A stretch of 64,000 nt of DNA from a phage: the sequence record OZ346164.1, one strand, 5' to 3'. A program made the translations under genes and the position numbers. The notes below the pieces were generated by a model. The model was not told the origin of the DNA. It did no database searches and worked only from the letters and a program-made list of their open reading frames with translations. Each line of letters opens with the position of its first letter. The first letter of the stretch is position 1. Shown here one piece after another: positions 4,500-63,593 of the stretch.

Positions 4500-4829
4500 T
4501 TAATCTGCCAGCCTTAAATTAAAATTAACACCAAATTTTTCGCATACTTCCAACATATACTCAAGCGAGACATTACCAGTGAGGTGGACTATGTTGGATA
4601 CACGAGCTTGAGAGATACCACAAATTTTAGCAACTTGCTCTTGAGAAAGACCTCTGGATTTAATCTCTCTCTTAAAACGATGTGCAACGAAATCTCTCAT
4701 TTCGTCTACATCCATTGGACAAATATAACTCTCCATTTCAGCCTCTCTGTCAGCCTCCCAATCATCTTGTGGAGCATAAGGGTCAAAAACCTCATTCATC
4801 TTTCTTCTTCCGTTTGCGTGAAGTGTCAA
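4500..4829 (-). CDS. helix-turn-helix DNA-binding protein
   Basis: QEQVAKICGISQARVSNIV resembles XRE-type HTH. Confidence 0.5.
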   Translation of the reverse strand: MTLHANGRRKMNEVFDPYAPQDDWEADREAEMESYICPMDVDEMRDFVAHRFKREIKSRGLSQEQVAKICGISQARVSNIVHLTGNVSLEYMLEVCEKFGVNFNLRLAD

Positions 4830-8005: not shown

Positions 8006-8539
8006 TCAACTTAGTTTTGCAAACTCTCCGTGGAGTTTAATAGCAGCTTCACAGTAAGCTTTATGGGCTTCTTCAGGTGTGTCATGGTGACCTAAAAACA
8101 TCTTCTTACCTTTATAACTTATCTGTGCGACCCACTTACCAGACTTCTTCTTAAGACTTACACCCTTGTACCCAGATTTATTGGTGACCGGTTTACCTTT
8201 ATTCCAAGCACTTTGAAAATCATCTGCTTCCCTTAAGTTTACAATCCTGTTGTCAAGTGAGTCTCCGTTGATATGGTCAATGATACCTTTTGGCATCTTG
8301 CCATACACGTAAAGCCATGCGAGTCTGTGTGCTTTATGTGCTTTCTTGTCAAAATAGATACTAACCTGTTTATGACCACTTGAATCAGTCTGGATATTAC
8401 CTGCCACCTTTCCTGCATAATTACTGTTAAAAACACTAACAGCTCTTGATTTACCTTCTCTACGAAGCCAAGTAAAGACCCCTGTTTCGGGGTCATAGTG
8501 CAGCAGCTCCTTTAAACGTTTTTGTAAAATTAAATCCAT
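8006..8539 (-). CDS. HNH homing endonuclease with AP2 DNA-binding domain
   Basis: IDHINGDSLDNRIVNLR HNH_3-like motif and SGYKGVS...WVAQI AP2-like motif; paralog of 18378..18893 (shared YDPETGVFTW). Confidence 0.75.
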   Translation of the reverse strand: MDLILQKRLKELLHYDPETGVFTWLRREGKSRAVSVFNSNYAGKVAGNIQTDSSGHKQVSIYFDKKAHKAHRLAWLYVYGKMPKGIIDHINGDSLDNRIVNLREADDFQSAWNKGKPVTNKSGYKGVSLKKKSGKWVAQISYKGKKMFLGHHDTPEEAHKAYCEAAIKLHGEFAKLS

Positions 8540-17377: not shown

Positions 17378-18424
17378 ATGGAGAAGTACACATTAACAAA
17401 ACTTCCCGATTCAGTTACACATGTTTTTATTGACTCTGACAGTATTGCCTATAAAGGTGCTTGTGTAGTTGAGAAAGCAAAGTATAAATATGTCAATAAA
17501 CTCACAGCAGAAGAATCTGAACCATTTGATAATGCGAAAGATGCTGCAAGATGGTTAGCAGACCAGAGAATCCTTGTGGAAGAACTTGGCCTGACATTTG
17601 ATGAAGATGAATGGGAAAGACAGACTTGGAAAGAAGCTAAGAGTGAAAAAGAAGCTATCATGGCTACTCAACAGGTTCTTCAGGAATGGCTTAAGGTTGT
17701 TGGTAAAGAGAGAATTTGGGTAGGTTATCTAACAGAGAAAGGTGTGCATAAGCATAAAGACATTAAAGGTCTTGAGCACCAATATCAAGGTAACCGTAAA
17801 GATGCTGTCACACCAACACACTTAGTTGCTTGTCGTGAGTATCTTCTGTCAAGACCAGAGTTCAAACTAATTCTTGATGGATTTGAAGCCGATTCTATCG
17901 TTATTGCTAAAGCTGAAAAGATGGGTAAAAAGGCTGCCTTGATGAGTATTGATAAAGACCTTCGTCAAGCTGAAGGGACTTACTGCATTGATATGACCTA
18001 TGAAAAGTCACCTTTGATTTTCATTGCTGACAACAACGTAGGTGAAATTTGGGATTGCCCAATAAAATCGACACCAAAAGCTAAGAAGACAGTTGGGGTA
18101 GGTTTTAAATTTCTTTGTTACCAAGCTGTGGCTGGTGATAATGCTGATAATTATTTTGGTTTAAAGGGCGTTGGTAAGGCTACTGTAATGAAAGCACTTG
18201 AAGGTAAAACCACCTACAAAGAGTGTCTTGATGCAATTTATGAGCTTTATGCTAAGAAAGAGTCATACACTTATGTCTCGTGGGATGGTCAAACAATTAC
18301 CAGAACACCTTTAGAGTTAATGCAGCAACACTTTTTCTTAGCTTATCAGGAAAGAAACAAGAAAGACGATTTTACTTTTGATAAGTATGGGTGGACACCA
18401 AATGTTAACTCAACAAACTCTTAA
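17378..18424 (+). CDS. 5'-3' exonuclease / flap endonuclease
   Basis: N-terminal HVFIDSDSIAYKGA resembles FEN/T5 D15 nuclease catalytic region. Confidence 0.55.
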   Translation: MEKYTLTKLPDSVTHVFIDSDSIAYKGACVVEKAKYKYVNKLTAEESEPFDNAKDAARWLADQRILVEELGLTFDEDEWERQTWKEAKSEKEAIMATQQVLQEWLKVVGKERIWVGYLTEKGVHKHKDIKGLEHQYQGNRKDAVTPTHLVACREYLLSRPEFKLILDGFEADSIVIAKAEKMGKKAALMSIDKDLRQAEGTYCIDMTYEKSPLIFIADNNVGEIWDCPIKSTPKAKKTVGVGFKFLCYQAVAGDNADNYFGLKGVGKATVMKALEGKTTYKECLDAIYELYAKKESYTYVSWDGQTITRTPLELMQQHFFLAYQERNKKDDFTFDKYGWTPNVNSTNS

Positions 18425-18893
18425 AGAGTACCTACATTATGACCCCGAAACAGGGGTCTTTACTTGGATTAAGAAATCTGCTAGACACACAAAAATTGGC
18501 TCTGTTGCAGGTACAAACTTAAGAGGGTATACCAGAATTTATTTGTTTGGTAAGGGCTATTATGCACATACCCTAGCCGTTCTGTATATGGATGGATACC
18601 TACCTGAGTGTGTTGACCATAAAAATCATGTAACACTAGACAATCGCTGGGTAAATCTTAGGGCATGTACGTTATCAGAGAACCAATGTAATAGGTTGCT
18701 CAATAAGAACAATAAATCAGGTGTTAAAGGTGTGTACTACAAAAAACAGTATGGTAAGTGGTCTACACAGATAACTTTTAAGAAGAGGGTTTACTTCTTC
18801 GGCAACTATGACACTATTGATGAAGCAGCAGAGGTTGTAAATAGGGAACGTCAACGTTTACACAAAGAGTTTGCTAATAAAGGTGATGAATGA
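18378..18893 (+). CDS. HNH homing endonuclease with AP2 domain
   Basis: VDHKNHVTLDNRWVNLR and SGVKGVYY...KWSTQI motifs; overlaps 3' end of exonuclease gene. Confidence 0.75.
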   Translation: MISMGGHQMLTQQTLKEYLHYDPETGVFTWIKKSARHTKIGSVAGTNLRGYTRIYLFGKGYYAHTLAVLYMDGYLPECVDHKNHVTLDNRWVNLRACTLSENQCNRLLNKNNKSGVKGVYYKKQYGKWSTQITFKKRVYFFGNYDTIDEAAEVVNRERQRLHKEFANKGDE

Positions 18894-41055: not shown

Positions 41056-41841
41056 ATGGGTATTGTAAAAATCATCAATGGCGATATCTTTGCCGCATTT
41101 GATAAAGGTAAGTTTGACATTATTGGTCACGGTTGCAACTGTATGAATTTAATGGGTGCAGGTATCGCTGACAAGATTTCTAAACTTTACCCAAAAGCAT
41201 ATGAGACAGATACAGAAGTCTATCTATATGCAGGTGGCATAGGTCACAAACCCTGTGAAAATTTACTGGGTAATTTCTCTGTAGCACGTTTAAAACAAGG
41301 TCGTATAGCTAACCTTTACACTCAGCTTAAGACTGGTAAAGATGCCCGATACAGTGCTTTAGAGTCATCTTTGAAGCAACTTAACAGATACTGTGAAGTT
41401 AATCAGTTGAAGAAAGTTGGTTTACCTATGATTGGTGCAGGTATCGGTGGACTTGACCCTCAAGCCGTCACAGTTATCATCAATCAGGTGATGAAGAGCG
41501 TAGATGTTTATCTATATGTCTATGAAGGAGAGATGTACCATAAGTTACTCTCAGGTTGGAAGAACTACTGTGAACCAGAATACTTTGCAGGTGTAGCAGT
41601 GTTCACAGATAACGCAGTTACCCTCTTCAGACGAAGAAAAGGTAAGATACATCAAAGTAACCCTCCGGTTGAAAAGATGTCTCTAAGTAACGCTCTAGTT
41701 ACCCACCTGTCAAAGAGCAATCACAGAATTGCTGTAACATTTGGTAGTGATGCAGAAGCTTATATCTATGCAAGAACTGATGAGGATATTGAGGCAATCT
41801 TCTCTTCACCAGAAGTTACCTTCTTAGACGCAAAGAACTAA
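41056..41841 (+). CDS. macro-domain-like protein
   Basis: N-terminal INGDIF...GHGCNCMNLMGAGIA resembles macro (ADP-ribose binding) fold signature. Confidence 0.4.
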   Translation: MGIVKIINGDIFAAFDKGKFDIIGHGCNCMNLMGAGIADKISKLYPKAYETDTEVYLYAGGIGHKPCENLLGNFSVARLKQGRIANLYTQLKTGKDARYSALESSLKQLNRYCEVNQLKKVGLPMIGAGIGGLDPQAVTVIINQVMKSVDVYLYVYEGEMYHKLLSGWKNYCEPEYFAGVAVFTDNAVTLFRRRKGKIHQSNPPVEKMSLSNALVTHLSKSNHRIAVTFGSDAEAYIYARTDEDIEAIFSSPEVTFLDAKN

Positions 41842-41910
41842 GAAACTCTGTAGGATATTCACAATAGACTAAGCCTTTCTTATCTGGTAAATTTTTCAGG
41901 TAAGGAGGGC

Positions 41911-42093
41911 TTTTTCATTTCAGATTTGTGCAGGTAGAGTTCTGTAGAGAAATCTATAGAGAAAATTTTGAACTCCAAAGAGAAAATTCATTCTCAAACT
42001 GTGCAGGTAATCTCCAAAGAGCTTTTTCATTTTCAAAACGTGCAGACCCCGCTCAGGTCGGGCAAGAAAAATCATTTTAGAATTGTGCAGGTA
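41911..42093 (+). repeat. four direct repeats TTTTCATTTT-N-TGTGCAGGTA
   Basis: Copies at about 41911, 41983, 42022 and 42066, each ending in (T)GTGCAG(GTA). Confidence 0.6.
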
Positions 42094-42107
42094 GGTTTTT
42101 ATAGACA

Positions 42108-42150
42108 GCCAGCCCAACCCCTCTCCCCCTCTTACTCCCCCTCTCCCCAA
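42108..42150. repeat. C-rich tract (G-rich on minus strand)
   Basis: CCAGCCCAACCCCTCTCCCCCTCTTACTCCCCCTCTCCCC; five or more G-runs on complement. Confidence 0.6.
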
Positions 42151-42269
42151 AAGTCAAGAGAAAAATTTGTAGCGGATTGAAAAATAATTCTTGATTTGCG
42201 TTCTGTTTTGTGGTAGTCGTGCGCACCCGTTTCATTACAGTTTTGCCAAAAATATTTTTAAAATTTTTA

Positions 42270-42364
42270 TTGACTCTTTGAACGTGGTTATCTAATATTT
42301 GCATCAACGGAGAGGGAATAACCTTCCCCACTAAATAACTAACCTTAAACTAGGAGACTCTAAA
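42270..42364 (+). promoter_or_regulatory. type-A cassette: promoter + hairpin leader + RBS
   Basis: TTGACT-17-TAATAT then GAGAGGGAATAACCTTCCCC hairpin, ACTAAAT, TAAACTAGGAGA, ATG. Confidence 0.55.
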
Positions 42365-42745
42365 ATGGCATATCGTGCACCTAAATTCATCAATAAAGAC
42401 AACTTTCGCAACGCACTGGAGAAGGCACTTGATGAGAATTTCAAAGGTAACGTTATCGTTGTTCACTCGTTCAATTTCAAGTATGATATCAACGGGAACA
42501 AAATCAACCACTACACTGCAACCATGCTAGATGGTACACTATCAAGTGAAAAAGCCGTACTGAATGCACTAGCAGGACGCGGAAAAGTATTAGTAAGATG
42601 TGATAAGAGACGTTATCAAGGCGGCGCATATGGTTACGACGATGCTATTTATCATCTTGAAAATATGGGCTATCAAGTAGAAAAAGCTGGGGTATCACAA
42701 ATCATCGGTAGTGATGGCTACGTGACAATCTTCAAAATTAAATAA
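42365..42745 (+). CDS. small early-type protein
   Basis: 126 aa, behind type-A cassette. Confidence 0.5.
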   Translation: MAYRAPKFINKDNFRNALEKALDENFKGNVIVVHSFNFKYDINGNKINHYTATMLDGTLSSEKAVLNALAGRGKVLVRCDKRRYQGGAYGYDDAIYHLENMGYQVEKAGVSQIIGSDGYVTIFKIK

Positions 42746-48357: not shown

Positions 48358-48395
48358 TCCACGCAGCGGGGCTAAATAGCCCCAGATACCTTTAC

Positions 48396-48423
48396 AGCCC
48401 CTTTCCCATAGGGGCTTTTTTAC
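48396..48423 (+). terminator. rho-independent terminator
   Basis: AGCCCCTTTCCCATAGGGGCT hairpin plus T-run; ends small-gene array. Confidence 0.6.
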
Positions 48424-48425
48424 GT

Positions 48426-49398
48426 CTATCCAATCCTCATACAACCCCTTTCCCTTTCCTTTCCAGAATCTTATCAGACCTTAAAAAGCAATAACTTTAC
48501 AGCCTTTTACTAAGTCAATTAATTGGCCTTATTAATAAGCCCTTAAACATAAGCCAATAACCCCAGAAAGGGGGCAACCCATTTAAACGCCATATAAAGC
48601 CCTATAACGGCCTTTTTAACCTAACTTAAGGGATTGCATTACCTCACCCTTAAAAGCCCTTTATAAAGCTTCACAGAGCCTTAAAAGAATCTTATAAGGG
48701 TGTGTTAAGACTTTTGAAGATTTGTTAAGAGCTTGAGAGAGTTGTTAAGAAATTGTTAAGGATATTTTAAAATTTTGCAAAGTACTTGTAAGGGAGCTGT
48801 TAAGGGCTACCAAGCAGATATACATCTTCTACAGATATTTTTCAGTTCCTTCAAAGACCCTAAAAAATGACTTGATAGTCCTATTTTATAAAAATTTTAA
48901 GATTCTGAATAATTACCTAGACAGTCTTTTAAAAATACAGGTAATAACAGGCTTATAAGATACCTTGTTAGTACCGTGTTAGACCTTGTGAGATAAGGTC
49001 TGTAAAGATATTCCTGTTAAGTTTGTTAAAACAGTCTATATAGAGGCTTAGTAATACCTAGTGAACACCTATAGAGGGTATCATAGCTAACCTAGAGATT
49101 AAGAGGTGTATAGGAGCTTCTAAGAGGGTATAGAGAGATGGTTAAGGTGATTGTATAGGTTGTTAAGAAGGCTTGTTAGAGGGCTTGTTAGAAGGGTTAT
49201 ACAGAGGGCTATTAAGACCACTAGATAGTTACTAAGATACTATATAGTACTATATAACTATATAGAGAGTAAGATTAAGAGGGTTGTTAAGAAGGATAGA
49301 TATTTTGTTCACATATGCTGGTGACCCAGAGGTTGGGACAACCGATGGAATTTTATAAAAATTAAAAAGCCCCCAATTAAGGAGGCTCTTAAGATATT
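48426..49398. repeat. about 1 kb non-coding region with dense short direct repeats
   Basis: No ORF of 60 aa or more on either strand; many copies of CCTTAAAAG-like, TGTTAAGA-like and TATAGAG-like units. Confidence 0.7.
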
Positions 49399-50004
49399 TT
49401 AAATCAGACTTTCTAAAACTGTTTTTAGTGATGACTTGGTTGTCTGATAAAAATGAGTGAATCCGTTGTTGTTATCGAATATCTGCATCATAACAGCATC
49501 TCCCTTGATTGGGTACACTCGGATATCATAGTGAAACCCATTAAAGACAGCAGAACCATTACAGAATACACTAAAATCACTTGCTGAGATATACTCTTCA
49601 TGACCTGTGATTTTTATACAGACACCTTTACTCGGTCTCTTAGGGTTGATATCTTCCATAATAGACATACTCTGTCCACCAAGAGATACCATAGTGACCA
49701 CTTTACGGTTCTTCTGTCTGAAGTACATTTTAACCTTCTGCAAGGTGTCTTCATAGAACGGATAAGACTTCTCTACAAAGATTCCTTCAAGTGGCTCTTT
49801 ACCGTTTACAATACCTCTGGTATGGCGTACTGAGAAGATAAGTTGCTCTAGCAGGTCAAGGCTTTCTTCGGATAGTGCTTCCCGAATATCGCTCCAGTCA
49901 AGTACTAGGTAGTTACCTTCAACTTCTTTTAAGTTATCTTTTTCCATAGCTATCACACCATTATCGTAAAACTTGGTAGGCTGGTACTGCAAACTTGTTG
50001 CCAT
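49399..50004 (-). CDS. hypothetical protein
   Basis: 201 aa ORF. Confidence 0.4.
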   Translation of the reverse strand: MATSLQYQPTKFYDNGVIAMEKDNLKEVEGNYLVLDWSDIREALSEESLDLLEQLIFSVRHTRGIVNGKEPLEGIFVEKSYPFYEDTLQKVKMYFRQKNRKVVTMVSLGGQSMSIMEDINPKRPSKGVCIKITGHEEYISASDFSVFCNGSAVFNGFHYDIRVYPIKGDAVMMQIFDNNNGFTHFYQTTKSSLKTVLESLI

Positions 50005-58630: not shown

Positions 58631-58708
58631 TCTCTGTTTAGCTCAGCTTGGTAGAGCGTTCCGTTTGGGGCGGTAAGGCCGGAGGTTCAAGTCCTCCAAC
58701 AGAGACCA
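58631..58708 (+). tRNA. tRNA-Pro (anticodon UGG)
   Basis: 7 bp acceptor, D stem GCTC/GAGC, loop TTTGGGG, T arm GGAGG-TTCAAGT-CCTCC. Confidence 0.75.
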
Positions 58709-58715
58709 AATTAAT

Positions 58716-58793
58716 GTTCCAGTAGACAAAATGGTATAGTCACCACTCTTTCAAAGTGGATATCTGAGGGTTCAAATCCCTTCTGGAACGCCA
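58716..58793 (+). tRNA. tRNA-Glu (anticodon UUC)
   Basis: Acceptor GTTCCAG/CTGGAAC, anticodon stem CCACT/AGTGG, loop CTTTCAA, encoded CCA. Confidence 0.75.
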
Positions 58794-58883
58794 GTTTTGA
58801 CAGAAGACCAATTACAGCAAACTTAATCTACTCATCTGAAAGTTAATCGGACAAAGAAGATATTTGGTCTGGTCATTAAGAAT

Positions 58884-58960
58884 TGCGGGTATAGAGAAAG
58901 GGCGTCTCACATGTCTCATTAGCATGGTATCGGCAGGTTCGACTCCTGCACCCGCCTCCA
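58884..58960 (+). tRNA. tRNA with anticodon CAU (Met or Ile2), 1-72 mismatch
   Basis: Loop CTCATTA, T arm GCAGG-TTCGACT-CCTGC, acceptor pairs 2-7 only. Confidence 0.6.
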
Positions 58961-59042
58961 AATTTACAGAAGACCGTTTACAGCAATATTTATTAAATTT
59001 TTAGCGGAAAAATTGAAAGATACGGTCTGGTAATACTAAATA

Positions 59043-59120
59043 TGGTTAGGAAGCACATAAGGTATGTGCGGTCGCCTGTTAAGCGAATGGCACAGGGTTC
59101 GAATCCCTGACTAACCGCAA
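59043..59120 (+). tRNA. tRNA-Asn (anticodon GUU)
   Basis: D stem GCAC/GTGC, loop CTGTTAA, T arm CAGGG-TTCGAAT-CCCTG. Confidence 0.7.
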
Positions 59121-59128
59121 AATTAAAT

Positions 59129-59216
59129 GTGTCGTTATCCCGTAGATGGTAGCGGTGGGGACTGTAAATCCCTTGTCATTGAGACTCGGTAGGTTCGACT
59201 CCTACACGGCACACCA
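59129..59216 (+). tRNA. tRNA-Tyr (anticodon GUA), long variable arm
   Basis: Acceptor GTGTCGT/ACGGCAC, loop CTGTAAA, about 15 nt variable arm, encoded CCA. Confidence 0.75.
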
Positions 59217-59221
59217 ATAAA

Positions 59222-59298
59222 GGCTATGTAGTTTAACTGGAGAAAATACTCCCCTGTCACGGGAGATGATGTGAGTTCAAGTCTCATCGTAGCCGCCA
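59222..59298 (+). tRNA. tRNA-Asp (anticodon GUC)
   Basis: Acceptor GGCTATG/CGTAGCC, stem CTCCC/GGGAG, loop CTGTCAC, encoded CCA. Confidence 0.75.
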
Positions 59299-59499
59299 AT
59301 TTTGAGAGGGCTATTTAGCCCCTCCCTTAAAGAGTTCTTACGAGTATTCTTTAAAGGAGCAGAAGACCAAATACAGCAAGAATGTATGATATTTTCAAGC
59401 CAATTCAATTTTGAAAAATTTAAAACTTGGTCTGGCTCAACAAATTTACAGAAGACCGTTTACAGCAAAACTTAAACAATCTATTTCTCGGTAAAGAAA

Positions 59500-59540
59500 A
59501 GGCGAAGGTTCGATTCCTTCACTCGGCAGAGGTCGAGTTG
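59500..59540 (+). ncRNA. tRNA-like T-arm plus acceptor minihelix (not a full tRNA)
   Basis: GAAGG-TTCGATT-CCTTC T-arm-like hairpin directly followed by ACTCGGC-AGAG-GTCGAGT hairpin and D-loop-like GTTGGTGTAATGGTAG. Confidence 0.4.
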
Positions 59541-59730
59541 GTGTAATGGTAGCACTTAAGATGATAAACAACGGTCTGGTAATTATCTTTGCAGTAGCTT
59601 ATGTGGCTAATTATGTCGTCCCATGAGTGCCGATGAATTTCCTTAGCATGATTCTAGATTAGCTTAATAGGAAATGACTCTACAGACCCTTTAGCAAGGT
59701 CTGCGTAGGTTACTGCAAAGATGATTTAAT

Positions 59731-59806
59731 GGAAGTGTAGCAGAATGGTGATGCGGCAGACTTTTAATCTGACAGGCGATGGGTTCGAATCCCTCCACTT
59801 CTACCA
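59731..59806 (+). tRNA. tRNA-Lys (anticodon UUU)
   Basis: Acceptor GGAAGTG/CACTTCT, loop CTTTTAA, TTCGAAT T-loop, encoded CCA. Confidence 0.65.
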
Positions 59807-59811
59807 AAAAT

Positions 59812-59888
59812 GGTTCAGTCGCAGATAAGGTAATGCAAGGGTTTCATAAGCCCTATGAATGTGGGTTCGATTCCCATCTGAACCTCCA
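59812..59888 (+). tRNA. tRNA-Met (anticodon CAU)
   Basis: Acceptor GGTTCAG/CTGAACC, stem AGGGT/GCCCT, loop TTCATAA, encoded CCA. Confidence 0.7.
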
Positions 59889-59890
59889 AT

Positions 59891-59966
59891 GCTGTGAAAG
59901 CACATATGGATGTGCATTCGGCTGATAACCGAAAGGCAGAAGGTTCGAATCCTTCTCACAGTACCA
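59891..59966 (+). tRNA. tRNA-Ile (anticodon GAU)
   Basis: Stem TTCGG/CCGAA, loop CTGATAA, T arm GAAGG-TTCGAAT-CCTTC, encoded CCA. Confidence 0.75.
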
Positions 59967-59982
59967 ATTTCAATAAAGTTGT

Positions 59983-60010
59983 TGACATTAAGATGTGACT
60001 ACTTTATAGT
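59983..60010 (+). promoter_or_regulatory. sigma70-like internal promoter in tRNA cluster
   Basis: TTGACA, 16-17 bp spacer, TATAGT. Confidence 0.5.
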
Positions 60011-60214
60011 AACCTTAGTTTTCGTTGCGTAGCGTCTATTTTGCAAATTTAAAATAAATGCAAACGACAATGTTTTTCTGGCAGTAGCTTGATAGGCTAA
60101 ACACCAGTGAGGTCTTCCAATCCCTCATCAAAGAATTTGGCGTACTCGCCCACGGTATGATTAATAAGGTGGGCATCTTTAAGGGCTTTCTAATAGAGTC
60201 TTTAAAGATAATTA

Positions 60215-60296
60215 CGGGGCGTATCTCAGCGGTCTTCTAAACCGCCGTTAACCGAGTAAGTGGAGTATGCGGGTTCGAGTCCTGCCGCCTCGACCA
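60215..60296 (+). tRNA. atypical tRNA-like gene, possible anticodon UCU (Arg)
   Basis: Good T arm and acceptor (CGGGGCG/CGCCTCG, CCA encoded) and GCGGT-CTTCTAA-ACCGC anticodon-like hairpin, but D-arm spacing non-canonical. Confidence 0.35.
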
Positions 60297-60439
60297 ATTT
60301 AGTTAGCAGATTACTTAGACGACCTAAGCGGGTCTTCCTGTAGGGAGGTGGTCTGTATCTCATGTTTTCCAGAACATGTAAATAATCTGAGAAGGGGCTT
60401 TACAGTGTTGAGATAATACGGTAAGCTTCGAATTATAGT

Positions 60440-60522
60440 ATGGGACGATGTTAAGACTCTAAGGCATGAGCAACGGCCTCCAAAACCGTTTCAAAGGGGT
60501 TCAACTCCTCCGTCCCATGCCA
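60440..60522 (+). tRNA. tRNA-Trp (anticodon CCA), enlarged D region
   Basis: Acceptor ATGGGAC/GTCCCAT, loop CTCCAAA, TTCAACT T-loop, CCA encoded; about 7 extra nt in D region. Confidence 0.5.
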
Positions 60523-60535
60523 AAGTCTTATTAGG

Positions 60536-60623
60536 GGTAGGTAGCGGCTAATGGCAGCCAAACAGTCTTGAAAACTGTTGCCACTGTAGAGATACGGTGA
60601 GGGTTCGACTCCTTTACTTACCG
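60536..60623 (+). tRNA. tRNA-Ser (anticodon UGA), long variable arm
   Basis: Acceptor GGTAGGT/ACTTACC, stem ACAGT/ACTGT, loop CTTGAAA, about 20 nt variable arm. Confidence 0.7.
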
Positions 60624-60881
60624 CCTAATAAGATTTTAAAGCCAAGCTTCATTCGGATGTCGCTTTGGTATCCCTCGTGTATTGTCGTACACACTGATAA
60701 AACACCTAGTAGGTGTCACGGAGAAGAGATAATATCAAGCTCTCCAAAGGTTCTAGTCACCGGATTAAACAAGACTATGCAAAGACCTTTTTAGGTCTTT
60801 TTAGAGGGCTTCTAAGGTTATTACAGCTTGTTGTGGAACCTTGTTGCTTAGGTTCTTAGAAGTTCTCTAAAAAGATTTAAT

Positions 60882-60958
60882 GCACCTATAGCCCAACTGG
60901 TAGAGGCAGCAGACTTAGAATCTGCTCAGTGTGAGTTCGAATCTCTCTAGGTGTACCA
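60882..60958 (+). tRNA. tRNA with Leu anticodon UAG but short variable arm
   Basis: Stem GCAGA/TCTGC, loop CTTAGAA, discriminator A, CCA encoded; only 5 nt variable loop. Confidence 0.55.
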
Positions 60959-60965
60959 AATTAAT

Positions 60966-61041
60966 GCAGGTGTAGCAAAATGGTTATGCGGCTGACCCTT
61001 AATCAGTAAGACGATGGGTTCAATTCCCTCCACCTGTACCA
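60966..61041 (+). tRNA. tRNA-Lys (anticodon CUU), tentative
   Basis: Acceptor GCAGGTG/CACCTGT, loop CCCTTAA (C at position 33), CCA encoded. Confidence 0.5.
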
Positions 61042-61047
61042 AACAAT

Positions 61048-61123
61048 GGGGTCATAGTTTATATGGTTAAAATTCGAGTTTTGCAAACTTGGGAACTGAG
61101 TTCAATTCTCAGTGACTCCACCA
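61048..61123 (+). tRNA. tRNA-Ala (anticodon UGC)
   Basis: Acceptor GGGGTCA/TGACTCC, loop TTTGCAA, T arm CTGAG-TTCAATT-CTCAG, CCA encoded. Confidence 0.7.
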
Positions 61124-61129
61124 ATTAGT

Positions 61130-61204
61130 GCATCCATAGTTTAAACGGGAAAATTACAGTCTTCCAAACTGAGGTTGAGGGTTCGATTCCCTCTGGATGC
61201 TCCA
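61130..61204 (+). tRNA. tRNA-Gly (anticodon UCC)
   Basis: Perfect acceptor GCATCCA/TGGATGC, loop CTTCCAA, T arm GAGGG-TTCGATT-CCCTC. Confidence 0.8.
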
Positions 61205-61211
61205 AATTAAT

Positions 61212-61287
61212 GCTCCTATCGTATAATTGGTTATTACGGTTGCCTTGTAAGCAACTTATCAGGGTTCGAGTCCTTGTGGGAGCACCA
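61212..61287 (+). tRNA. tRNA-Thr (anticodon UGU)
   Basis: Stem GTTGC/GCAAC, loop CTTGTAA, TTCGAGT T-loop, CCA encoded. Confidence 0.8.
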
Positions 61288-61290
61288 ATT

Positions 61291-61380
61291 CAGAGGTCAA
61301 GTGAAAGACCGCTTTGAGTCAACTGAAGACCGTAACAAATTCCACGAAGTTGAGTTAGCGGCACAACTTCAGACCTCTTT
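61291..61380 (+). ncRNA. long structured hairpin element between tRNAs
   Basis: CAGAGGTC ... GACCTCTT closing stem around about 75 nt containing GAAGACCG motifs; no T-loop. Confidence 0.35.
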
Positions 61381-61383
61381 CAT

Positions 61384-61458
61384 ACTCGCTTAGTTTATAT
61401 GGTAAAACATCACCCTTACAAGATGAAGAAAAAGGTTCAAGTCCTTTAGTGAGTACCA
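61384..61458 (+). tRNA. tRNA-Val (anticodon UAC)
   Basis: D stem GTTT/AAAC, loop CTTACAA, T arm AAAGG-TTCAAGT-CCTTT, CCA encoded. Confidence 0.7.
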
Positions 61459-61459
61459 T

Positions 61460-61537
61460 GTTCCAGTATCCCAATTGGCAGAGGATGCAAGCTCAAACCT
61501 TGTATTAGTGACGGTTCGAATCCGTCTTGGAACACCA
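61460..61537 (+). tRNA. tRNA with Leu anticodon CAA but short variable arm
   Basis: Stem GCAAG/CTTGT, loop CTCAAAC, T arm GACGG-TTCGAAT-CCGTC, discriminator A, CCA encoded. Confidence 0.55.
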
Positions 61538-61542
61538 ATTTT

Positions 61543-61618
61543 GCAGGATTAGTTCAAATGGATAGAGCAACAGTCTACGAAGCTGCTAATAGGGGTTCGA
61601 ATCCCTTATCCTGCGCCA
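61543..61618 (+). tRNA. tRNA-Arg (anticodon ACG)
   Basis: Perfect acceptor GCAGGAT/ATCCTGC, D stem GTTC/GAGC, loop CTACGAA, CCA encoded. Confidence 0.8.
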
Positions 61619-61637
61619 ATTTAAAGAGGCTATTTAG

Positions 61638-62195
61638 ATGAGATATTTGAAGTATGCTTCATGGATTTTCTTAGCTTTGTTAGAGCCATTTGCAGCAATC
61701 TTAGCAGTTATCTTAGCACCTTTTGTAGTTCCATTCTACAGTGAGAAGAAAGGGCACTTACCTTTCGGGTTCAGATGGATGGAGACATATGACAACCCAA
61801 TTGATGGTGATGAAGGTCACGTTAAAAGATGGGCTAATATTAGATGGATTGGTAAACTAGGTGTCTACATGCAAAGAGTCGGATGGCTCTGGAGAAACAA
61901 AGCTTATAACTTCTCTTACCATGTATTAGGAAGAGATGTAAGAGATGTTACTAAGTGGAAAGGTAATATCAACGTAAGTTCTGACCCCGAAGATAATCAG
62001 ACAGGTTATCTCCTAATGTGGAACAGTAATGCTTGGGGATTATTCGCTTTTATCCCATCAATTAAAATCTTTGGTAAACAATTTTACTGGAGAATTTATA
62101 TTGGATGGAAACTAAAAAGTGTTGTCCCAGAAGAAAGAGCATTCTCAAGGGAAAGAGTTATGTTGGCATTCTTTATTCATCCACTGAGAAAGTAA
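61638..62195 (+). CDS. membrane protein encoded inside tRNA cluster
   Basis: 185 aa, hydrophobic N-terminus, Trp-rich. Confidence 0.45.
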   Translation: MRYLKYASWIFLALLEPFAAILAVILAPFVVPFYSEKKGHLPFGFRWMETYDNPIDGDEGHVKRWANIRWIGKLGVYMQRVGWLWRNKAYNFSYHVLGRDVRDVTKWKGNINVSSDPEDNQTGYLLMWNSNAWGLFAFIPSIKIFGKQFYWRIYIGWKLKSVVPEERAFSRERVMLAFFIHPLRK

Positions 62196-62203
62196 AGATT
62201 TAA

Positions 62204-62279
62204 AGGGGATTAGTTTACAAGGTTAAAACCTCGGTCTTTGAAATCGAAGAAGTTGGTTCAATTCCAACATCCCCCGCCA
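62204..62279 (+). tRNA. tRNA-Gln (anticodon UUG)
   Basis: D stem GTTT/AAAC, stem TCGGT/ATCGA, loop CTTTGAA, T arm GTTGG-TTCAATT-CCAAC. Confidence 0.7.
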
Positions 62280-62281
62280 AT

Positions 62282-62360
62282 GCTCCATTACTCCAATTGG
62301 CAGAGAGGCCAGACTTAAAATCTGTGTTATGTATCGGTTCGAATCCGATATGGAGTACCA
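62282..62360 (+). tRNA. tRNA with Leu anticodon UAA but short variable arm
   Basis: Loop CTTAAAA, T arm ATCGG-TTCGAAT-CCGAT, discriminator A, CCA encoded. Confidence 0.5.
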
Positions 62361-62365
62361 AATTT

Positions 62366-62441
62366 AGCGGTATAGCATAACTGGCAATGCAGCAGCCTCT
62401 GAAGCTGTCCTATTAAGGTTCAAATCCTTATGCCGCTGCCA
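62366..62441 (+). tRNA. tRNA-Gln (anticodon CUG)
   Basis: D stem GCAT/ATGC, stem GCAGC/GCTGT, loop CTCTGAA, T arm TAAGG-TTCAAAT-CCTTA. Confidence 0.65.
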
Positions 62442-62472
62442 CTTCTAAGGATTCTTGCGAGAGTCCTTAAAT

Positions 62473-62548
62473 GTGGCCTTATCATAAACGGTAATGACCC
62501 ATGCTGTGAACATGGTCTATACGGGTTCAAATCCCGTAGGTCACCCCA
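62473..62548 (+). tRNA. tRNA-His (anticodon GUG)
   Basis: D stem TCAT/ATGA, stem CCATG/CATGG, loop CTGTGAA, T arm ACGGG-TTCAAAT-CCCGT. Confidence 0.8.
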
Positions 62549-62553
62549 ATTTA

Positions 62554-62630
62554 TAGTCCAAGTAGCTTATATGGTTAAAGCGCGTGTCTGAAAAACATGA
62601 GAAGAGAGTTCAAATCCCACTGGACTACCA
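62554..62630 (+). tRNA. tRNA-Phe (anticodon GAA)
   Basis: Acceptor TAGTCCA/TGGACTA, stem CGTGT/ACATG, loop CTGAAAA; T stem weak. Confidence 0.6.
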
Positions 62631-62646
62631 ATTTCAAAGGTGCTTA

Positions 62647-63381
62647 ATGAAAGAGATGACAGAACAAGGTAAGGAGATTTTTAATCTCTTAAAAACTGGT
62701 AAAGGGTTCTCTAACCCGCTTATTACTGGTGCAGCAGTTCTCGGTGGAACCGTAGCTGCCTCTACATCACTTGTAAGCTCTATTAGTTCTGTAACAGACC
62801 CTACAATGAAGGAGAAGCTTGTTGCTGCTGGACTTACAACAGTCCTTCTAAACAGCTTTACAACAAGCCTGACAAGCACTACAGCAACCACTAAGACCCT
62901 AACAGACTATGGTCAAAAGTCTATTGATGAGTTTTCATCACGTATGCAGGTAGCAAAGGGATACTCCAATGTTATGGGTGCAGCAGGAGAACAAGTTGGT
63001 TGTACACCATTCAGTGGTATTATGGGTGTTGCTACAGAATATGGTCAAAAAGCTATTGATACGATTAACAGTACACTAGAGAGTGTTAATGGTGTGTTAA
63101 GTGACTTACAAGATGCTATTGATAAGGGTCTTGATACTGTTTCTGATTTAGCTAATCAGGCTGTTAGTAAGATTAATGAAGGTATTTCAAAGATTACAGC
63201 TTATGCAGATGAAGTTGTGCAGATGATTGAAGAAGAAGCTGCCCTTATTGCAGAGTACCTTAAAACGAATATCAATGGGTTCTTAGCAGGTATCTTACCA
63301 GACTGGTTTGATGATGCTTGTAAAACTGGTGTAATCGACACTATTGCAACACCAGAAATGAAGAACGCATTGCAGAAATAA
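62647..63381 (+). CDS. hypothetical protein encoded inside tRNA cluster
   Basis: Start moved to Met after tRNA-Phe (track start 62584 overlaps the tRNA); Ser/Thr/Ala-rich helical protein. Confidence 0.45.
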   Translation: MKEMTEQGKEIFNLLKTGKGFSNPLITGAAVLGGTVAASTSLVSSISSVTDPTMKEKLVAAGLTTVLLNSFTTSLTSTTATTKTLTDYGQKSIDEFSSRMQVAKGYSNVMGAAGEQVGCTPFSGIMGVATEYGQKAIDTINSTLESVNGVLSDLQDAIDKGLDTVSDLANQAVSKINEGISKITAYADEVVQMIEEEAALIAEYLKTNINGFLAGILPDWFDDACKTGVIDTIATPEMKNALQK

Positions 63382-63382
63382 T

Positions 63383-63475
63383 GGAAGATTAACCCTAAAA
63401 GGTAAGGGAGCAGTTTGCTAAACTGCCAGTAGCTGAGAAATCGGTGTACCAGTTCAAGTCTGGTATCTTCCTCCA
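63383..63475 (+). tRNA. tRNA-Ser (anticodon GCU), long variable arm
   Basis: Perfect acceptor GGAAGAT/ATCTTCC, stem GCAGT/ACTGC, loop TTGCTAA, long extra arm. Confidence 0.75.
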
Positions 63476-63480
63476 ATTTT

Positions 63481-63555
63481 GAATCCGTGACAGAAATGGA
63501 TATGTGCCTGTCTGCAAAACAGGTTTATAAGGGTTCAAGTCCCTTCGGATTCTCC
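63481..63555 (+). tRNA. tRNA-Cys (anticodon GCA)
   Basis: Perfect acceptor GAATCCG/CGGATTC, stem CCTGT/ACAGG, loop CTGCAAA, CCA encoded. Confidence 0.8.
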
Positions 63556-63593
63556 AAGTTATTTTACTCTCTCTCAATTAAAATAATAATAAT

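Follow-up and report, generated by a model that had tools for sequence, protein, structure and literature searches.

A conserved array of four direct repeats between a macro-domain gene and the small-gene module of Felix O1-like phages

The intergenic gap and its repeat units

The DNA analyzed here is a stretch of 64,000 nucleotides from the phage record OZ346164.1, referred to as the window, and its subject is an array of four direct repeats located in a gap of approximately 520 bp between two plus-strand genes, a macro-domain gene annotated as 'phosphatase' and the first member of an array of small genes. Matches to the surrounding 701 bases come from 225 phage records, almost all of them from Felixounavirus, the Felix O1-like myoviruses that infect Escherichia, Salmonella and Shigella, and the best of these are 94–98% identical. 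From left to right the gap contains a terminator hairpin, the four repeat units, a C-rich tract, a conserved block of 50 bp, an AT-rich UP element, a promoter and a leader, followed by the small genes.

All four units have plus orientation and share a 27-nt core of the form G-W5-TCATTTTCAA-N3-GTGCAGGT. An initial annotation, made from the sequence alone, had pointed out four copies of a repeat, and all of them were found, with cores at 41909–41935 (GCTTTTTCATTTCAGATTTGTGCAGGT), 41982–42008 (GAAAATTCATTCTCAAACTGTGCAGGT), 42021–42047 (GCTTTTTCATTTTCAAAACGTGCAGAC) and 42066–42092 (GAAAAATCATTTTAGAATTGTGCAGGT). The copies themselves are thus real, but the 9–12 nt by which they had been described understate a unit of approximately 40 nt, in which a variable G-rich left arm, T-R-R-ACTCCAAAGRG in the consensus of 51 copies aligned from 13 phages, precedes a 5-nt run of A or T, TCATTTTCAA, three variable positions and GTGCAGGT. 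It had also been stated that the copies end in GTGCAGGTA. This is true of three of the four, which terminate in TGTGCAGGTA, but not of the third, which reads CGTGCAGAC and has GTGCAGAC at its terminus instead of GTGCAGGTA.

The array is far above chance expectation. With the full unit matrix, unit 1 (41896–41937) scores 55.1 bits, unit 2 (41969–42010) 48.9 bits, unit 3 (42008–42049) 51.3 bits and unit 4 (42053–42094) 46.6 bits, while the remainder of the 64 kb stays below 12 bits and shuffled sequences below 8 bits. The cores alone reach 39.6, 32.0, 36.7 and 35.0 bits, and when the core matrix was run over the complete 87.1-kb genome of phage Bas63, only the four units exceeded 10 bits, at 35–40 bits. 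The short motifs of the unit are likewise confined to the array region of the window. From start to start the units are spaced by 73, 39 and 45 nt, and the long gap of 73 nt between units 1 and 2 holds a partial fifth copy (41949–41967, plus strand), detected as a member of the direct-repeat family, that consists of left arm and A-run only (GAAATCTATAGAGAAAATT) and matches the left arm of unit 2 at 84% identity.

The left neighbor of the array is the macro-domain protein gene (41056–41841, plus strand), a Tk.4-like gene whose product matches Pfam Macro with E=1e-7 and PHROG 335, 'phosphatase', with E=5e-113. It is the final gene of a long plus-strand operon, and its position beside the array is conserved, also in the Erwinia phage phiEa21-4. 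It is followed by a Rho-independent terminator with a hairpin of 17 pairs and a T-run (41871–41915, plus strand), identified in a terminator scan and annotated as such in the phages wV8, KhF3 and ASO1A. The 3' arm and T-run of this terminator also serve as left arm and W5 run in unit 1, and in distant relatives the hairpin has changed in its left arm, with the 3' arm, GGTAAGGAGGGC, remaining constant.

To the right of unit 4 lies the C-rich tract (42109–42149, plus strand), with a G+C content of 68% and an AT content of 31.7%, and then the conserved block AAAAGTCAAGAGAAAAATTTGTAGCGGATTGAAAAATAATTCTTGATT (42150–42200, plus strand), which has arms TCAAGA and TCTTGA approximately 30 bp apart. On the minus strand of this block a TTGACT (42157 to 42152) is a possible leftward −35 element, spotted by eye only, and the −10 element that would belong to it is poor (TAAGAG). 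The AT-rich UP-like element (42247–42269, plus strand) directly precedes a sigma-70 promoter, TTGACT-17-TAATAT (42270–42298, plus strand), which is strong by the promoter scan, is annotated in ASO1A, and is predicted to drive the small-gene array. Its equivalent was found in phiEa21-4 and in two further relatives, L013 and L024. With this promoter adjoining, the element does stand at the entry to the small-gene array, as the initial annotation had it.

The first gene past the promoter (42365–42745, plus strand) encodes a protein of 126 amino acids that belongs to PHROG 4495, a family of unknown function. Among close relatives this gene is swapped, with at least three unrelated N-termini (MAYRAPKF..., MASRKIKV... 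and MLYSREL...) encountered across a comparison that includes L002 (phage ekra), L005, L014, L016 and L018; ASO1A, too, has an alternative first gene. In ekra an additional gene of approximately 480 bp is inserted. The gap is the fixed left border of a region of gene shuffling. Near position 42000 the plus-strand GC skew drops from approximately +0.13 (12–42 kb) to approximately +0.03 (42–48 kb) and the AT skew rises, with the direction of transcription unchanged, so that the terminal small-gene module differs in composition from the rest of the plus-strand operon.

Conservation of the units and the two alleles beside them

For the comparison with related genomes that the initial annotation had proposed, 29 related loci were retrieved from IMG/VR via the macro protein and the gap was aligned. 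Over 23 relatives, the identity of the cores of units 1 to 4 is 0.94, 0.93, 0.94 and 0.96, respectively. The spacers reach 0.63–0.85, the UP stretch and the block at 42150–42200 0.92 each, and the C-rich tract 0.59. In six distant relatives, which are probably Suspvirus- or Mooglevirus-like, the macro protein is only 64–70% identical, and four units are again found at the equivalent place, spaced by 75–77, 39–41 and 45 nt. DNA identity to these six is 0.79 for the array, higher than in the macro gene (0.70) and in the gene downstream (0.63); it is 0.90 for the block at 42150–42200.

The strongest single result is the architecture shared with phiEa21-4 of the genus Kolesnikvirus. At the syntenic locus this phage has the macro (Tk.4) gene, a terminator, four copies of GGnnnGnTTTTTCATTTTnnAnTTGTGCATAG spaced by 37, 37 and 39 nt, a C-rich stretch, an AT-rich stretch and the promoter TTGACT-17-TATATT. 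Outside the units the gap cannot be aligned, and the four cores are kept in number, order and orientation, with 78% identity between unit 4 of the window and unit 3 of phiEa21-4. Within one phage the units are identical to a degree of 0.57–0.69, whereas orthologous units of different phages reach 0.74–0.98. The array is therefore old, and its units have been kept individually rather than homogenised.

Beyond this group the array was not recovered. It is absent from two phages farther removed, L030 and L031, which have a related macro gene, and no related array was found in 5,426 E. coli genomes or in 72,556 plasmids, where only chance matches occurred. Scans of viral and genome contigs with degenerate patterns gave mostly single chance matches and were uninformative; multiple matches were seen only in Felix O1-like viral contigs. 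In the literature searched the element is undescribed. It is a real, previously unannotated cis element that extends across the Ounavirinae, resembles known repeat arrays and conforms to the tested definition of none of them, and the initial annotation was right in regarding the repeats as non-coding.

The C-rich tract had been emphasized in the initial annotation for its G+C purity and its potential to form a G-quadruplex (G4) or i-motif, and the G4 prediction suggested there was run. On the minus strand, 42113–42141 is the sole canonical motif (four or more runs of at least three G, loops of 1–7) in the 64 kb, with 0.07 expected in shuffled sequences, and the G4Hunter score of the tract, −2.36, is the most extreme of the window. 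The G4 and i-motif potential is thereby confirmed at the level of sequence. It is nevertheless unlikely to be the essential feature, because the tract is the least conserved part of the gap and gives way to an unrelated allele in roughly half of the relatives. Either the C-rich tract or GGTGGGTGCAGGTGGGGATGTCGCCATTTCTCACAAGGCTACCACATCTG occupies the space that follows unit 4 and precedes the conserved block (window 42095–42150). The alternative allele starts with GGTAGGTGGGTGCAGGTGGGG, carries its G-runs on the plus strand and brings with it a fifth GTGCAGGT and a Chi-like GCAGGTGG; it occurs in L009, L011–L016, L018–L020, L022, L029 and Bas63 (L156:24300–24375). G4Hunter scores accordingly range from −1.9 to −2.4 in lineages with the C-rich allele and from +1.2 to +1.6 with the alternative one, and the value for phiEa21-4 is −1.6.

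The C-rich tract is an accessory, replaceable part outside the core of the element. As RNA of the plus strand it would be a C-rich, G-poor stretch of the Rho-loading type, and it could serve to load Rho onto read-through RNA or else be prone to R-loop formation. The G-run of ColE1 RNA II and mitochondrial CSBII are known as tracts for priming and R-loop formation, and like the tract they are strand-asymmetric G/C blocks with the potential to form a G4, beside a candidate origin and a promoter. Unlike them, the tract comes in two unrelated alleles with G-runs on opposite strands, is the least conserved part of its locus, and has no promoter shown to transcribe it in the G-rich sense.

Several assemblies end in or just past this tract. 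The metagenome contigs L003 and L004 stop at the equivalent of window position 42138, L025 at approximately 42176 and the GenBank record MT446388.1 at approximately 42198; L004 continues directly into Nextera adaptor (CTGTCTCTTATACACATC). L007 switches to unrelated GC-rich sequence after the equivalent of position 42064, just before unit 4. The pattern suggests that the breaks are better explained by two alleles that make the assembly graph branch, or by a tract that sequences poorly, than by an end of the genome. This latter interpretation, prompted by the breaks, was rejected because the mapped terminal repeat of phage UAB_Phi87 lies approximately 6.4 kb away.

The swapped downstream gene, the two alleles past unit 4 and the breaks of metagenome contigs at this place could together be taken to mean that the conserved DNA has no function of its own and is an anchor for homologous recombination at the edge of the gene-shuffling region, kept similar by exchange. 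We regard this as quite improbable. Conservation is not even along the gap but concentrated in the cores, and phiEa21-4 retains the same set of four in a gap that has otherwise diverged beyond alignment.

Coding, RNA and DNA-entry interpretations

Three open reading frames (ORFs) are called over the array, at 41928–42080 and 41968–42180 on the plus strand and at 41920–42150 on the minus strand. A coding function was rejected, as among 12 relatives the starts, stops and frames differ, the plus-strand frames lack an ATG, and insertions and deletions are not multiples of three. With no shared frame, and with unit spacings that are mostly not multiples of three, the ORFs are artefacts, which the initial annotation had already suspected. 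Annotation of the gap nevertheless varies among public records. In ASO1A, KhF3 and wV8 only the terminator and the promoter are given as signals, and 'hypothetical proteins' over the gap include up to five in UAB_Phi87, gp96 and gp97 in Bas63 and gp013 in wV8, along with four 'unknown' features in Felix O1. The hypothetical proteins annotated over the array in database records should go.

One of these annotations figures in the PhageMaP barcode-insertion screen of Bas63 (bioRxiv 10.1101/2024.10.10.617714). 'Gene 96' of that phage (bas63_0096, 64142–64297) corresponds to window 41920–42075 and thus begins within unit 1 and extends as far as the beginning of unit 4. Its insertion fitness is positive, 0.24 to 0.98, in every PhageMaP table seen, and resembles that of its non-essential neighbors (10.1101/2024.10.10.617714). 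No row is given in these tables for 'gene 97', the one that spans unit 4, the G-rich allele and the conserved block. From the scores for gene 96 it follows that Bas63 does not need the array intact in laboratory E. coli.

Structured RNA was considered next to coding sequence. Folding energies equal those of shuffled sequences on both strands (z of −0.01 and +0.27), RNAalifold placed no consensus pairs over 20 units, and a search of the locus against Rfam gave no match. Promoters within the array were equally scarce. The sigma-70 scan found none inside the array in the window, and among relatives only unit 1 of L024 passes; in the window, no promoter recognized at tool level reads into the array on either strand. 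In phiEa21-4, a sigma-70-like promoter, TTGACG-18-TATACT (L154:2240–2269, minus strand), matches 10 of 12 consensus positions; it is directed to the left, toward the units, and stands back-to-back with the early promoter that faces right. A genome-wide promoter motif was ruled out because the units are restricted to this one place.

These results bear on the idea that the array is transcribed as a repetitive non-coding RNA that acts as a decoy, either mimicking a type III antitoxin or soaking up an RNA-binding protein, against a host abortive-infection nuclease absent from laboratory strains. We consider this improbable. The geometry is suitable: type III antitoxins are tandem repeats of approximately 34–45 nt, and the four tandem units of uniform orientation have a period of 37–45 nt overall (39–45 nt for units 2–4, 37–39 nt in phiEa21-4); other type III families have longer units. 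In antitoxin arrays the repeats are presumably near-identical as a rule, and the identity of 0.57–0.69 found here is far from that.

A direct comparison is possible with ToxI, whose repeat of 36 nt occurs 5.5 times, and with the pseudo-ToxI repeats of PhiTE, which measure 36–37 nt (PMC3475682). Like the array, these are non-coding tandem repeats of approximately 36–45 nt in few copies, they are found between phage genes, and they are dispensable where the matching defense system is missing. The decoy would also account for a locus that is unique in the genome and dispensable in laboratory E. coli, and every unit reads AAAAUGA on the minus strand, which contains an AA/AU-type site of the kind cut by ToxN (PMC5086642). 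A good leftward promoter into the array, as present in phiEa21-4, would provide for its transcription.

The sequences themselves, however, do not support the relationship. Local alignment of the units with ToxI and pseudo-ToxI, taken from the supplement of PMC3475682, gave z values of −0.5 to −1.4 on both strands, that is, no similarity, and units that share just 57–69% identity within one phage contrast with the near-identical repeats of that system (PMC3475682). Orthologous units are conserved one by one, a consensus structure is lacking, and neither Rfam nor the plasmid and E. coli collections searched above hold a counterpart. In plus orientation the terminator precedes the array instead of following it. 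Read from the minus strand, promoter, repeats and terminator would come in the proper succession, but the promoter passes the scan only in phiEa21-4, tool-level promoters into the array are missing in the window, and the hairpin has no U-run on that strand.

Recognition sites of known proteins were examined as well. The units of phiEa21-4 read CTATGCACA on the minus strand, which agrees with the DnaA box in 8 of 9 positions, and the Felix-type units agree in 6 of 9. DnaA boxes were rejected as an explanation; the array region contains no perfect one, and in phiEa21-4 boxes with one mismatch occur at chance density. In the whole window perfect boxes (TTWTNCACA) number 5, fewer than the 11.7 ± 4.0 expected from shuffled sequences. 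Chi has one site in the 64 kb, away from the array, and the GCAGGTGG of the alternative allele is merely Chi-like. Sites for IHF, Fis, CRP, sigma-54 and EcoKI and dif sites were compared by eye only, and none fitted.

As for the ends of the genome, a terminal repeat of 608 bp has been mapped experimentally in UAB_Phi87 (PMC4837284), and a boundary of this kind at the array was excluded by its distance. The direct terminal repeat aligns to JN225449 at approximately 15.15–15.76 kb and lies in a SpeI fragment that matches published terminal fragments in size. Its last 110 nt align to window 48703–48813 with 86% identity, and the remainder has diverged in the window. Around this match, an ORF-free zone of approximately 1 kb (48360–49400) carries TGTTAAGA at 48703, 48723 and 48743, with a period of 20 bp, and again at 49161 and 49285. 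The terminal repeat of the phage itself, with its packaging region, is probably to be sought in this zone. Elsewhere in the window, 25 tRNA genes are clustered on the plus strand at 58632–63556, as is typical for Felix O1-like phages, and two HNH endonuclease genes, one of them with an AP2 domain, are located at 18378–18893 and 8006–8539 within the region for replication and nucleotide metabolism; both are probably homing endonucleases.

The array thus lies approximately 6.1–6.7 kb inside the right terminal repeat, at about 7.7% of the genome, and it does so at the same position in phiEa21-4. In phage T5 the first step of DNA transfer delivers 7.9% of the genome (10.1101/866236), and by analogy a protein of host or phage origin, bound to the units, might pause transfer once the terminal small-gene module of approximately 6.5 kb and the promoter have entered, as occurs at the injection stop of T5, and keep the remaining DNA back until the early proteins have been produced. 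Both regions are non-coding repeats at approximately 8% of the genome from one end, at the inner edge of an early module of the host-takeover type, and in both the repeats are more conserved than the adjacent genes. The idea is also favored by the module beyond the array, with its small, fast-changing genes under strong promoters of the host type.

We would nonetheless rate such a checkpoint as very improbable. Entry with the right end first is deduced solely from the position of the terminase gene, and a transfer in two steps is assumed. The injection-stop (iss) region of T5 spans more than 1 kb inside a terminal repeat of 10 kb and combines inverted repeats and palindromes with eight paired DnaA boxes (10.1101/866236). 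The array, in contrast, covers approximately 200 bp outside a terminal repeat of approximately 600 bp, consists of direct repeats only and has no DnaA boxes beyond the imperfect resemblances described above, and in Bas63 insertions into its units are tolerated. If the checkpoint were true, two-step genome transfer would take place also in the contractile-tailed Ounavirinae and not only in T5-like phages.

A candidate array of protein-binding sites

The interpretation that we favor, with low confidence, is that of a single-locus, non-coding cis element of the Ounavirinae in which the four differentiated units, all in the same orientation, are recognition sites for a putative sequence-specific DNA-binding protein, either phage-encoded or conserved among enterobacteria. 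It fits best because the array occupies a single locus and one orientation, its long asymmetric units have a strongly constrained core and are conserved unit by unit, no predicted promoter of the window leads into the gap, and signals of RNA or coding function are missing. The conservation of each unit from phage to phage, together with the differences among units of a single phage, recalls graded arrays of binding sites such as origin iterons or sets of operators. Bound to the units, the protein would most likely form a nucleoprotein complex on the border of the terminal early module, whose synteny, with the array at the inner edge of the small-gene module and 6–7 kb from the terminal repeat, is conserved.

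Among specific roles for such a complex, the leading candidate is a dispensable origin of the iteron type, since an AT-richer stretch and a strong promoter, both of which it may use, adjoin the units. The same arrangement is found in iteron arrays, namely the lambda origin with its four sites for the O protein and the origins of P1, F, pSC101, R6K and RK2, where direct repeats of one orientation lie at a single locus beside a promoter and DNA of higher AT content, and where the units are conserved as a set although individual copies differ. Iteron arrays have at least three direct repeats of the same orientation at one locus, and four units and a partial copy are present here. Classical iterons, however, are 17–22 bp long and stand in register approximately 22 bp apart, whereas the units of the array extend over 27–42 bp at intervals of 37–45 bp and are out of register.

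Several observations weigh against this interpretation and account for our low confidence in it. Searches of 29 distinct proteins from the neighborhood and the replication module, a part of the proteome, returned no initiator family, so that the cognate protein of an iteron array has no recognizable counterpart, and no binding protein for the units was recognized either, the neighboring genes being of unknown function. The primase-helicase is T7 gp4-like (Toprim and DnaB_C), and replisomes of this type normally do not use iterons. The unit spacing (37–45 and 73–77 bp) is out of helical phase and varies by 2–4 bp between lineages, which is again unlike classical iterons. The cumulative GC skew has its minimum at approximately 11.5 kb, beside the replication genes, and shows only a change of slope at 42 kb. 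The AT-rich stretch is just modestly above background, with 69% AT at 42150–42269 versus 60–61% in the flanks, and only the 23-bp UP-like stretch is strongly AT-rich.

The insertions tolerated in Bas63, finally, argue against a sole origin or a packaging signal. An accessory element, a redundant array of sites or an origin of the dispensable kind would accord with them, although they are evidence for none of these; the primary origins of T7 and T4 can be deleted as well. Given that no initiator was recognized among the proteins scanned, and given the T7-like replisome, the lack of helical phasing and the tolerated insertions, the terms 'origin-associated' and 'regulatory hub' of the initial annotation are to be read as hypotheses only.

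The position of the array, which has a terminator on one side and a strong, UP-equipped promoter on the other and is conserved in all relatives, also suggests a transcriptional boundary, in which the units would bind a regulator that insulates or tunes the flanking transcription units and the C-rich, G-poor tract would load Rho and mop up read-through. This we hold to be possible but doubtful as an explanation in its own right. A regulator is at hand in a protein of 108 amino acids with an HTH_3 domain of the Cro/C1 type (4500–4826, minus strand), the only clear DNA-binding regulator among the proteins scanned, whose homolog in Bas63, gene 35, scores as essential in PhageMaP. Yet XRE-type HTH proteins usually bind palindromes rather than asymmetric sites of 27 nt, and with a distance of approximately 170–390 bp upstream of the promoter the units are too far away for ordinary activation or repression. 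Many other early promoters of the module have no such units, and about half of the relatives do without the C-rich tract. For the complex that a protein-binding array would form, a boundary or regulatory role is nearly as likely as an iteron-like origin.

Felix O1-like phages are in wide use for the typing of Salmonella, for its biocontrol and in therapy, and Bas63 is on its way to becoming a model phage. The genome has no other single-copy repeat element of this kind, and with its conservation across four genera the array is the obvious handle on the replication origin, the control of early transcription or the entry of DNA in these phages, and knowing the protein that binds it would show which non-coding DNA to preserve when they are engineered.

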